Position numbers and translations under genes: made by a program. Shown here piece by piece: positions 38,753-40,529 of a stretch of DNA of 64,000 nucleotides. The DNA lies in the IMG/VR virus record IMGVR_UViG_3300048924_000619, positions 1-64,000 of that record. One strand, 5' to 3'. Position 1 is the first letter of the stretch. Every line of letters starts with the position of its first letter. Origin of the DNA: a virus. The notes beneath the pieces are model-generated. The model did not search any database. It saw nothing but the letters and a program-made list of their open reading frames with translations, and was not told the DNA's origin.

Positions 38753-38816
38753 CGCGGGAACCTCCGGGTATACGGGGGACATGGGGTTGAGACGGCCGCT
38801 GGGGGGAGGGTAGCTT
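38753..38816 (+). promoter_or_regulatory. Sigma70-like promoter of RNA island with upstream 10-bp repeats
   Basis: TTGAGA(38787)-N18-TAGCTT(38811); CGCGGGAACC/TCCGGGTATA/CGGGGGACAT. Confidence 0.65.
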
Positions 38817-38822
38817 CCTCTC

Positions 38823-38899
38823 AGCGGGGTGGAGCAGCCCGGTAGCTCGTCAGGCTCATAACCTGAAGGTCGGCGGTTCGAATCCGCTCCCCGCTCCCA
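38823..38899 (+). tRNA. tRNA-Met(CAT), initiator-type body with A1:U72 and C73
   Basis: AGCGGGG TGGAGCAGCCCGGTAGCTCG TCAGG CTCATAA CCTGA AGGTC GGCGG TTCGAAT CCGCT CCCCGCT C CCA. Confidence 0.95.
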
Positions 38900-38929
38900 A
38901 TTCGCCCTTTCAGGGCATCCGAGATGCGG

Positions 38930-39294
38930 ACCACGCTCGAATAGGTGGCAATCCCTCCGGGGCCTGCGGACCGAAAGACTGGCGAGCATGGCGCTAAAGG
39001 CAAGCTTCTGGCCCGCGCCGGCTGAAAGGCCGGCAACAAGATCCCGTGCGAACGGGGCGCGCTTGATGGGAGGCCCGCGGAAGGGCCGAACGTAGCACCC
39101 CTAGTAGGCCGGCCCCGAGGCGGTTCGGGTGCCCGTTGGCGCCGGCGGTTACGGCGTCAGAGGCCCAATGGGCCGCAGTTGGTGGAAGCCCGGCGCCAGT
39201 TTCGCCCCTTCGGGGCGTCCGATGCGTCTTGTTGCAGGTGCAAGAGCCGGCTGCGGTTGCCCGACGGGGCCACCTAGCGAGTGCCGGACGTGGT
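38930..39294 (+). ncRNA. Unidentified ~365-nt multi-helix structured RNA
   Basis: Nested long-range helices plus GNRA/UUCG-type hairpins (see findings). Confidence 0.65.
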
Positions 39295-39344
39295 TGGTGG
39301 TTTGGTCGCCCTAGGCGGCCTCGTCCGCCAGCGATCAAAACCTG

Positions 39345-39674
39345 AGGGGTTAATGGGCGGTCACCGACGGGAGACCGCCCAAGACTTCCAAATGAGAATT
39401 CGCCCTTGCAGGGCACACAAGCTTTGGTTCGGACCCGGGTGCAATTCCCGGCGGCTCCACCCAAGCCCATCGACCGCCGCGAGAGCGGGCGGCGCCCGGA
39501 GCGAAGGGGCGTTGATGCTAACGGGACGATGGGCTTCGGGGGGCCGATCAGGATCGACGAGCCAGGGGCGCGGTGAAAGCCGCATTTGATAACTCTGAAC
39601 GACAACTATCCCATCGCTCAGGCCATCGCGGCCTAGCAGGAGCCCGGCGGGGGCTTGGCAACAGAACCCCGCCA
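39345..39674 (+). ncRNA. ssrA: Circularly permuted (two-piece) tmRNA
   Basis: Acceptor piece ends GGACCCGGGTGCAATTCCCGGCGGCTCCA (39459); coding piece starts GGGGCCGATCAGGATCGAC (39540); G3.U70; tag LNDNYPIAQAIAA* 39595-39636; GGCAACAGAA 3' motif; 5' boundary approximate. Confidence 0.92.
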
Positions 39675-39774
39675 CCCAGAGGCCTAGGCGGGCCAACCGA
39701 TCACCGAAAGGGACCACGGCGGCGCCGATCGTGGCGACTCCCCCGGCCGGTTGGTTCGACCCTAGGCCTCTGGG
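39675..39774 (+). ncRNA. 100-nt rod-like RNA closed by a 14-bp perfect stem
   Basis: CCCAGAGGCCTAGG/CCTAGGCCTCTGGG then CGGGCCAACCG/CGGTTGGTTCG. Confidence 0.5.
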
Positions 39775-40520
39775 CCAACGAGAAGACCGACAGCGCGCCA
39801 GCGTACCAGTCTTAGTAAATGGGTGAATCTGGTGGGAGCCTGACCGCTCCCGTTCCTGAGGGCTGGGGGGGAAGCGATTGATCGTCGCTGATACCGAAGC
39901 TCAAGGGCGACAAGATCAGGTTGGCTAGCCCGAACGCGCCGCAGCACCGCCGGCGCCAGTACGGAGGTCCCGGACCGGTTGCGCGTGCTGGCGCAGCCGC
40001 GGAATCCCCGCCCATCGTGGCTTCGGCCTTGAACGTGGGAAAGTCACCCCGGCTGCGTTCCACGCGGTCGGGCAGGCCCTTCCGGGGGATCCTGATGACC
40101 GGGGCATGAATTCGCCCGAACGGGCAACAGAGGTCTGTGCCGACAGACGGTCAGGGGCGGCCCCCGCGAGGTTTCGACTTCAGCGACGGGATCGTAAGTC
40201 CTTGGGCATCGGCCCGTGCGGTGTGCCGGCGGTTATCCGGTTGTCCGGGGGCAATTGACTGAACCCCCTCAACAAAGCTGTCAGGAGTTGCGCCCGAAGG
40301 GGCACACGAGTTGTCGGCGGGGAGGCGGTTAGCGCCGCTTCCAGCCAAGGTTGGCCAACCGGGTCAATGCTCTGCGCAGGGCGGCGACCTTAAGCGTGAA
40401 TGGCATCGCGGTTCGAGTCCGTGGCGCGCACATGGCAACCGCCGGCGAAACCATCTGGCGGCGGGGCATCCGAGCTATCGGAGTAGGGCCCCGCCGCTGG
40501 GGCAGACTTCCCCCGCCCCT
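39775..40520 (+). ncRNA. Further structured noncoding RNA(s), including a T-loop element
   Basis: GCGCAGCCG/CGGCTGCGT, GTCTGT/ACAGAC, CCCCCG/CGGGGG, CGCGG-TTCGAGT-CCGTG (40407), GCGGCGGGG/CCCCGCCGC; no credible ORF. Confidence 0.5.
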
Positions 40521-40529
40521 CCCAATTCG

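Follow-up and report, generated by a model that had tools for sequence, protein, structure and literature searches.

The window analysed here, the first 64 kb (64,000 nucleotides) of the 94-kb IMG/VR provirus record IMGVR_UViG_3300048924_000619, has a G+C content of ~66% and contains an RNA island of ~1.8 kb (38,753-40,551) between the genes for the large terminase (lambda-gpA-type, 34960-37062) and the portal protein (40552-42297), the immediate neighbours being a 195-aa open reading frame (ORF; 38165-38752) and the portal gene. Within this island a tRNA-Met is followed by two conserved domains, termed A1 and A2, a multi-hairpin stretch (module B), a two-piece transfer-messenger RNA (tmRNA), a hairpin rod of 100 nt and a right half of less regular sequence, and short "punctuation" hairpins recur between units. 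The locus is a phage stable-RNA island of known kind that carries an RNA family, A1, which has probably not been described before.

The island is non-coding. A first-pass annotation of this DNA had counted ~1.75 kb without a credible ORF, and a GC-frame plot agrees, showing no codon periodicity: the spread of GC between codon positions across 38800-40500 was 0.04-0.11, in comparison with 0.35-0.57 in the flanking genes, the exception being a value of 0.20 in the single plot interval covering the tmRNA tag. The longest ORFs in the island are antisense and overlap the tmRNA. Among these, a 203-aa minus-strand ORF at 38994-39605 was discarded as spurious, as it overlaps the tmRNA and the GC-frame plot rejects coding.

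An Rfam cmscan of 38600-40700 at E<=10, the check proposed by the first-pass annotation, returned the tRNA and the tmRNA and nothing else; A1 and A2 matched no family, nor was there any match to GOLLD, ROOL, Y RNA/YrlA, RNase P RNA, 6S RNA or SRP RNA. Homologous loci were first collected via the portal protein, and ~150 loci were fetched for homologue searches by BLAST. The same annotation had placed most members of the island outside known families, which is sustained for A1 and A2, since they are conserved elsewhere, carry compensatory changes and match no Rfam family, and which finds no support in the last ~750 nt.

The A1 and A2 domains

Three features occupy the stretch between the tRNA-Met and the tmRNA, apart from the punctuation hairpins:

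38917-39042, + strand: A1 domain (96.2 bits with covariance model R1; 25-sequence alignment; no Rfam match)
39036-39200, + strand: A2 domain (BLAST identity 73-77%; no Rfam match)
39223-39396, + strand: module B, a stable multi-hairpin stretch (minimum free energy, MFE, -84.1 kcal/mol; z -2.7)

A single multi-helix domain of ~365 nt had been proposed here. A conserved domain is indeed present, but its bounds are ~38917-39200 and it is made of two parts, A1 and A2. The A1 set comprises 25 distinct sequences obtained from pattern scans of viral and metagenome contigs and from one isolate-genome prophage. Its layout can be written as RUGC-GGAC-(variable hairpin)-GCGA-GCAY-GGC-G..AAAGGCAAGC.UCUG-GCC-C-(hairpin with GNRA-type loop), in which RUGC and GCAY form a four-base helix, P1, and the hairpin after GGAC is an insertion of 8-54 nt whose sequence is unrelated between members. 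The core of ~35 nt (GCGAGCAYGGCG..AAAGGCAAGC..C.GGCC) is invariant in all 25 copies found, members having been found with exact patterns taken from this core, and the flanks and the inserted hairpin differ completely across the 25 sequences. When only the 5' part of A1 was fixed in the scan, four true members were recovered, all keeping the 3' core; two other matches to this 5'-only pattern (L154, L155) were set aside as chance matches in coding DNA.

Compensated pairing supports the predicted helices. At the first pair of P1, 20 sequences have A-U, 5 have G-C and none has a mismatch, and the 3' hairpin (P3), with its U-GNRA-G loop, shows three covarying pairs. Over the 25 sequences, 94.5% of cells are paired, whereas shuffles reach 87.5% and slid partners 35-48%, and the covariation score is 0.178 against 0.064, with none of 500 shuffles reaching 0.178. 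The copy in the window shows all features of the proposed motif. Covariation among homologues, on which the first-pass annotation had staked its reading, is thus found in A1, and compensatory pairs in A2.

By BLAST, 38921-39217 is conserved in a prophage of Phenylobacterium ferrooxidans HK31-G (L010; 69% portal identity), where it occupies the slot upstream of the portal gene, and part of it is conserved in an unrelated viral contig between ssb and dnaN. With model R1 the window gives a single copy (96 bits) and the 151 genomes of the order likewise one, the other 150 giving no match; the core pattern occurs in one of 401 genomes sampled across the alphaproteobacterial class. Both matches are the L010 prophage, and such rarity, with the sole match in a prophage, points to an RNA of mobile elements and not to a host housekeeping RNA. 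BLAST of A1-A2 against plasmids gave no match, and the genes neighbouring the A1 loci share no family. A1 follows tRNA-Met in three phage lineages; elsewhere there is mostly no tRNA nearby, the domain lying beside tRNAs in several islands and beside tmRNA in two independent ones. A copy lies ~320 nt downstream of a full alpha-type tmRNA in a metagenome contig (L099), and others between tail sheath and tail tube genes (L063), ahead of a ParB-like gene, in an island of 1 kb that lacks ORFs and precedes a terS-like gene (provirus G404) and, as a tandem pair, in L087. In L115 it stands alone, with ORFs of the opposite strand apparently on both sides, and the copies in L087, L115 and L122 have promoter-like and terminator-like signals of their own. 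As a separate observation, the proviruses L058 and L072 share 96% identity up to and including A1 and part abruptly just behind the GGCAAC that ends its 3' hairpin; this break may be a recombination or cassette junction.

Rfam searches of the window and six other A1 loci found no family matching A1. Its core sequence was not found in the literature searched, a search that did not extend to the unnamed candidates of a catalogue of 10,006 viral candidate RNAs (PMC10690425). By these comparisons A1 is an RNA family absent from Rfam 15, with at least 25 members, and probably undescribed. No complementary target for the core was present in three host-type genomes at <=3 mismatches over 31 nt. Resemblances to the HDV-like ribozymes and to the ZTP riboswitch were followed and dropped, being conserved across members in neither case and giving no match in Rfam.

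A1 might instead act in cis, either as a small self-cleaving ribozyme that would help to sever the units of the island, or as a put-like RNA that would let RNA polymerase pass the many hairpins into the late genes. The very strongly conserved nucleotides of its core sit at helix junctions, on either side of a hairpin that varies freely, no fixed gene partner exists, tandem copies occur, and the orientation is that of the flanking operon in most loci (the tail genes of L063, terS of G404, the portal gene in the window and L010). There is also a precedent in the theta ribozymes, minimal HDV-like ribozymes which adjoin phage tRNAs (PMC10879173) and which A1 resembles in being a small conserved element that follows a phage tRNA and could define RNA ends. 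However, none of the self-cleaving ribozymes in Rfam (HDV-like, hammerhead, twister, twister-sister, pistol, hatchet) matched the window or the six A1 loci at E<=10, and in our reading of the alignment A1 cannot be threaded on the HDV fold, as its would-be L3 offers no CC for P1.1. In contrast to the theta ribozymes, A1 misfits the HDV double pseudoknot, is separated from the tRNA by a hairpin and lies mostly in tRNA-free contexts. The setting in L115 between opposite-strand ORFs, together with the promoter-like and terminator-like signals of L087, L115 and L122, is better suited to an independent RNA gene, and a cis-acting A1 is therefore considered unlikely.

The A2 domain recurs in three further lineages, namely the L010 prophage, contig 5 of a Caulobacterales genome (G081; two copies) and a viral contig (L150), with a divergent copy in provirus G404. 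In L010 it follows a 170-nt insertion, and A1-A2 measures ~470 nt there versus ~285 nt in the window. RNAalifold gave 49 pairs, 8 with a compensatory change, over three effectively distinct lineages, and an Rfam search of the island and of one A2 locus gave no match to A2. ORF-free stretches of 400-550 nt have A2 at their 3' end in both G081 and L150, with small ribbon-helix-helix genes running divergently from them, and in G081 these stretches lie beside a tyrosine integrase. On comparative grounds, A1-A2 is a predicted RNA of ~285 nt with two conserved domains. The first 8 nt of module B, UCUUGUUG, are complementary to CAACAAGA at 39034-39041, just after A1 (inverted repeat I1), and this pair brackets A2 and hairpin H2; given this complementarity, A1, A2 and B may be one RNA of ~470 nt.

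A side observation concerns two of the A2 loci. In L131 (G081 contig 5), positions 1-2700, and in L150, three small ribbon-helix-helix genes stand in tandem, the first two of which, at least, point away from an ORF-free stretch ending in A2 and a terminator. This array may be an RNA-plus-regulator module of a genomic island.

The tRNA, the tmRNA and the rod

The known members of the island are listed below, together with the promoter-like site ahead of them and the rod that follows them.

38787-38816, + strand: promoter-like site TTGAGA, 18-nt spacer, TAGCTT (read from the sequence)
38823-38899, + strand: tRNA-Met, anticodon CAU, encoded CCA (ARAGORN; Rfam RF00005, 63 bits)
39417-39676 (end approximate), + strand: two-piece (permuted) tmRNA gene (RF04321; host ssrA alignment)
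39435-39451, + strand: tmRNA T-arm (Rfam alignment, read from the sequence)
39452-39461, + strand: tmRNA 3' acceptor strand plus ACC (acceptor CGGCUCC at 39452-39458)
~39462-39539, + strand: tmRNA intervening segment
39540-39546, + strand: tmRNA 5' acceptor strand GGGGCCG, giving G3:U70
39595-39636, + strand: tmRNA tag frame, (L)NDNYPIAQAIAA then stop (NDNYPIAQAIAA-UAG at 39598-39636)
39639-39676, + strand: tmRNA 3' element (host ssrA alignment)
39675-39776, + strand: rod, a 100-nt imperfect hairpin (MFE -63.4 kcal/mol; z -4.8; inverted repeat I5)

The tRNA-Met had been called correctly, ARAGORN and Rfam agreeing on 38823-38899 with an RF00005 score well above the gathering score (63 bits versus 29). 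As read from the Rfam alignment, its body is initiator-like (A11:U24, close to tRNA-fMet); 1:72 is a paired A1:U72 and the discriminator is C, unlike the initiator-type body, and only two G-C pairs adjoin the anticodon loop. The sigma70-like promoter said to head the island fails the consensus scan, but its -10 box, TAGCTT, ends 6 nt before tRNA base 1, and a similar spacing is seen in L010 (TAGCTT, 6 nt) and L056 (TTGACG-16-TAGGGT, 7 nt), that is, 6-7 nt in three phage lineages. The putative promoter is a weak one, and the polycistronic operon which the first-pass annotation placed behind it is hypothetical. It was also noted that such a -10 box would place the transcription start on tRNA base 1, as in L010 and L056, in which case RNase P would be unnecessary. 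Three related RNA islands contain, in addition, tRNA-like RNAs without an anticodon arm (L006:4247-4302; L010:5808-5876; L099:1391-1455), which have an acceptor stem, D-arm and T-arm and in which a short conserved linker (~CAC.CAA.GGAGGUC) replaces the anticodon arm; one of them reaches 31-33 bits with the tRNA model.

The permuted tmRNA proposed in the first-pass annotation is upheld by a match to RF04321 at 39417-39636 (58.6 bits against a gathering score of 47, model positions 1-213). With RF01849 the score is 48.3 bits, just under the gathering score of 50, over model positions 82-172 of 355, whereas the host ssrA genes of two Caulobacterales genomes give 236 and 240 bits over the full RF01849 model. 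GGGGCCG (39540-39546) pairs with CGGCUCC (39452-39458), forming a two-piece acceptor stem with the G3:U70 alanine identity pair. The tag holds an NDN motif and ends in AA before the stop, the host tag being ANDNFAEEVRLAA, and the resume codon is CUG (Leu), which is atypical, not GCN. The T-arm/acceptor region is nearly unchanged relative to the two host ssrA genes, and the part at 39426-39461 matches 353 of 401 genomes of the order, with 92-97% identity in the best matches listed. One genome of that sample, G046, is marked as unpublished, and none of the conclusions depends on it. The 3' element is also kept from host ssrA, its stem compensated from GGAGGG/CCCUCC to GGCGGGG/CCCCGCC, and this retention places the end of the gene near 39676. 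Relative to the host gene, the first ~80 nt are missing and a short hairpin stands in their place, the pseudoknot-1 region is reduced to one hairpin, and the intervening segment has ~78 nt versus ~35 nt. By alignment, the tmRNA is best described as a reduced two-piece form derived from a host-type ssrA.

Two-piece tmRNAs of phages are documented, accounting for 53 of 133 unique phage tmRNAs (PMC9004378), and the tmRNA of the window is therefore not a new kind. It shares with the phage two-piece tmRNA of alphaproteobacterial type (RF04321, RF01849) the gene order of acceptor piece, intervening segment and coding piece. It differs from the alphaproteobacterial tmRNA in its reduction, its longer intervening segment, its CUG resume codon and its score just below the RF01849 gathering score. 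In BLAST of the island against cultured phage records, only two parts gave matches, namely the tRNA and, in Caulobacter phage CcrColossus, a short piece of the tmRNA. In that record (JX100810, L057), positions 2501-2550 are unannotated and match the tmRNA 3' element of the window at 88%, ~250 nt upstream of an annotated tRNA-Met, which suggests a tmRNA gene left unannotated in the record.

The rod directly follows the tmRNA 3' element and has no counterpart in the two aligned host ssrA genes. It had been reported as a 100-nt rod, and this description holds, its 14-nt terminal arms being 100% complementary and its folding far more stable than that of shuffled sequence (z -4.8). The rod could be an RNase III site; it shows no strand asymmetry of the sort that would reveal selection at the RNA level.

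Punctuation hairpins and the right half of the island

The units of the island are separated by a GC hairpin preceded by AAUUC or AGUUUC. The consensus of these punctuation hairpins is RWUUCGCCC-loop-GGGC, in which RWUUC is an A/U-rich lead and after which comes a YMCRAG-type tail, and five are present in the island.

38899-38917, + strand: hairpin H1, AAUUC-GCCCU-uuc-AGGGC-A (pattern scan; repeat family D1)
39199-39217, + strand: hairpin H2 (pattern scan; repeat analysis)
39397-39415, + strand: hairpin H3 (pattern scan; repeat analysis; host ssrA alignment)
40109-40127, + strand: hairpin H4 (pattern scan)
40287-40311, + strand: hairpin H5, a variant, AGUUGC-GCCC-gaag-GGGC-ACACGAG (read from the sequence)

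The pattern TTCGCCC-N2-6-GGGC has 4 exact matches in the 64 kb, versus 0.93 expected, all of them in the island and on the + strand. H1 directly abuts the CCA end of the tRNA-Met, and H3 sits where the acceptor piece or precursor of the host tmRNA has a 5' hairpin. The island of L006 contains four further punctuation hairpins, marking unit borders, and hairpins at unit borders are likewise found in L010, L011/54/56, G404, G405, L099, L103 and G081. Related phages have the hairpins in common and the cassettes not: in L010, L006 and L004 the slot upstream of the portal gene is filled by other combinations of small genes with whole or fragmentary tRNAs. From their placement, the hairpins may be RNA processing signals or, equally, joints for the exchange of RNA cassettes.

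The latter idea can be taken further, with the hairpins as DNA- or RNA-level joints of mobile RNA-gene cassettes, in an integron-like array built by recombination at AAUUCG-hairpins. Different cassettes occupy the same slot in related phages with only the hairpins shared, the A1-A2 unit is bracketed by hairpins in both the window and G404, CCCAAUUCG is found at both borders of the island, and the A2 units of G081 are arrayed beside a tyrosine integrase. Yet no recombinase lies in or beside the island of the window, and a hairpin that abuts mature tRNA CCA ends suits RNA processing. An integron-like origin is thus regarded as quite unlikely, with the proviso that joints and processing signals are not mutually exclusive.

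The right half of the island contains the following features.

39779-40106, + strand: non-coding stretch with no sign of function (z -0.7; no homologue)
40132-40286, + strand: non-coding stretch with no sign of function (z +0.3; no homologue)
40395-40435, + strand: tRNA remnant, T-arm then acceptor-like GCGCGCA (repeat D5)
40505-40529, + strand: second copy (76%) of the tRNA-Met 3' end plus CCCAAUUCG (repeat D2; right-hand island border)
40531-40554, + strand: TCGTGAC-N14-ATG motif ahead of the portal gene, where the next expression unit starts

The last ~750 nt had been described as hairpin-dense and as holding several structured RNAs. Neither description stood: the folding z-scores over 39779-40445 (-0.7, +0.3, -1.5) are no better than those of shuffled sequence, homologues are lacking among the ~150 fetched loci, and the stretch has neither conservation nor exceptional stability and contains remnants derived from tRNAs. 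The TTCGAGT T-loop noticed there does exist, at 40412-40418, and looks like part of a tRNA remnant, as its T-arm (40408-40421) shares 93% identity with the one in the island tRNA-Met; over 40395-40435 no tRNA was called by ARAGORN, or by Rfam at E<=10. Comparable T-arm fragments occur in L010 and L006. At the right-hand border CCCAAUUCG is repeated from the left one, and L006 has the same AAUCG-TCGTGAC junction ahead of the portal gene, adjoined there by the CCA end of an intact tRNA. To judge from these repeats, the last ~750 nt, with two tRNA remnants, would be mostly decayed tRNA and cassette remains, or else fast-evolving sequence. About half of the island shows no sign of functional RNA.

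These remains invite a more sceptical explanation, in which only the tRNA and the tmRNA are functional and the rest, A1 and A2 included, is filler, the debris of recombination between RNA genes, hitch-hiking from phage to phage as selfish sequence. It would account for the half of the island that lacks homologues and has ordinary folding energy, for the tRNA remnants and anticodon-less tRNA-like pieces common in related islands, and for the direct repeat of the tRNA 3' end that brackets the island. However, A1 retains an invariant core of ~35 nt and compensated helices across 25 sequences with differing flanks and stands alone in unrelated contexts, which neutral filler would not do. This explanation is accordingly held to be very unlikely.

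The TCGTGAC motif is conserved ahead of the portal gene in L010, L006 and L004. Elsewhere in the window, and at the portal gene itself, TCGTGAC is followed by a gene ATG exactly 14 nt later at 31473, 40531, 51758, 54407 and 60752 (+ strand); the + strand has 17 occurrences of the motif and the - strand 7, and in L004 it also precedes a tRNA. A small hairpin often ends at or encloses the start codon after it. The motif may be a phage late promoter or a translation signal.

Proposed role and relation to known systems

Bacteriophage T4 offers an instructive comparison, since its tRNA genes and small stable RNAs form one ORF-free block that is processed by host RNases, and this cluster includes stable RNAs of unknown function (rnaC/rnaD, "species 1 and 2"). 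The likeness lies in the co-location of tRNA with orphan small RNAs in an ORF-free block; there is no sequence relation, and the island of the window has a tmRNA, A1/A2 and a recurrent punctuation hairpin.

GOLLD and ROOL are large ornate RNAs often found beside tRNAs in prophages (10.1101/2024.12.08.627333), and they share with the island the prophage setting, the tRNA neighbour and a large multi-helix non-coding RNA. In comparison with their ~600-800 nt, A1-A2 measures ~285 nt in the window (~470 nt in L010), and A1 and A2 also occur separately. Kinship with GOLLD and ROOL, which the first-pass annotation named as large RNAs of phage tRNA clusters, finds no support, Rfam giving no match at E<=10. 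The novelty lies in A1 as a family, in the A2 domain and in a punctuation hairpin that recurs.

The reading that we favour, and hold to be somewhat better than even, is that a temperate phage of an alphaproteobacterium resembling the Caulobacterales carries here an island of stable-RNA genes, placed in a variable slot just upstream of the portal gene. The units would be transcribed rightward from the weak promoter abutting the tRNA and cut apart by host RNases. An enzyme of the RNase E type would cut within the A/U-rich tract that precedes each hairpin, and the hairpin would then remain on the next RNA as a cap protecting its 5' end; the tRNA-like ends would be trimmed by the enzymes that mature tRNA 3' ends, and the rod may be cleaved by RNase III. 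While the structural genes are being expressed, the tRNA and the tmRNA would serve translation and ribosome rescue. A1-A2 is most likely a stand-alone folded RNA acting in trans, whose invariant unpaired core would be the site that binds a conserved factor of the host or the phage; such a trans-acting, factor-binding RNA is our leading guess.

Several points weigh against this reading. The invariance of the A1 core is partly a matter of ascertainment, because the searches used core patterns. The covarying P1 pair is a single pair resting on about three lineages, and the 5' AGAUGC of A1 can also pair with a second site, GCAUCU, so that the A1 fold is not settled. The folding stabilities of A1 (z +0.2) and A2 (z +0.3) are unexceptional relative to shuffled sequence; the evidence for both is thus comparative, not thermodynamic, and that for A2 comes from three effectively distinct lineages. 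Among the ~150 fetched loci no homologue was found for module B, the rod or 39779-40440, and to speak of decayed cassettes there is to argue from absence. The promoter-like site scores too low to pass the consensus scan, the island lacks a closing terminator, and a search of sequencing runs found no RNA run with this DNA. Four root-metagenome DNA runs contain low-depth contig pieces identical to parts of the island, so that these runs add no sequence differences on which covariation could be tested. That the hairpins serve processing is purely an inference, and they could alternatively be recombination joints, protein sites or antitermination sites.

A bolder version, improbable as we see it, would make A1 a new functional RNA class moved as a cassette, either catalytic or binding RNA polymerase or the translation/ribosome-rescue machinery, and would make the AAUUCG-hairpin units an RNA-gene cassette system analogous to integrons, which assembles tRNA, tmRNA and orphan RNAs ahead of the late genes.

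Phage tRNA clusters are increasingly seen as stable-RNA islands, in which almost no orphan RNA has a known role. The tmRNA of this island is in itself an ordinary find for a phage. A1, on the other hand, represents a concrete and testable family, with 25 members, a sharp core, a variable hairpin and stand-alone copies, and the punctuation hairpin provides a handle on the processing or the assembly of such islands. Should translation, ribosome rescue or RNA processing prove to be the target of A1, this would constitute a new route by which temperate phages of soil and root alphaproteobacteria tune their hosts.

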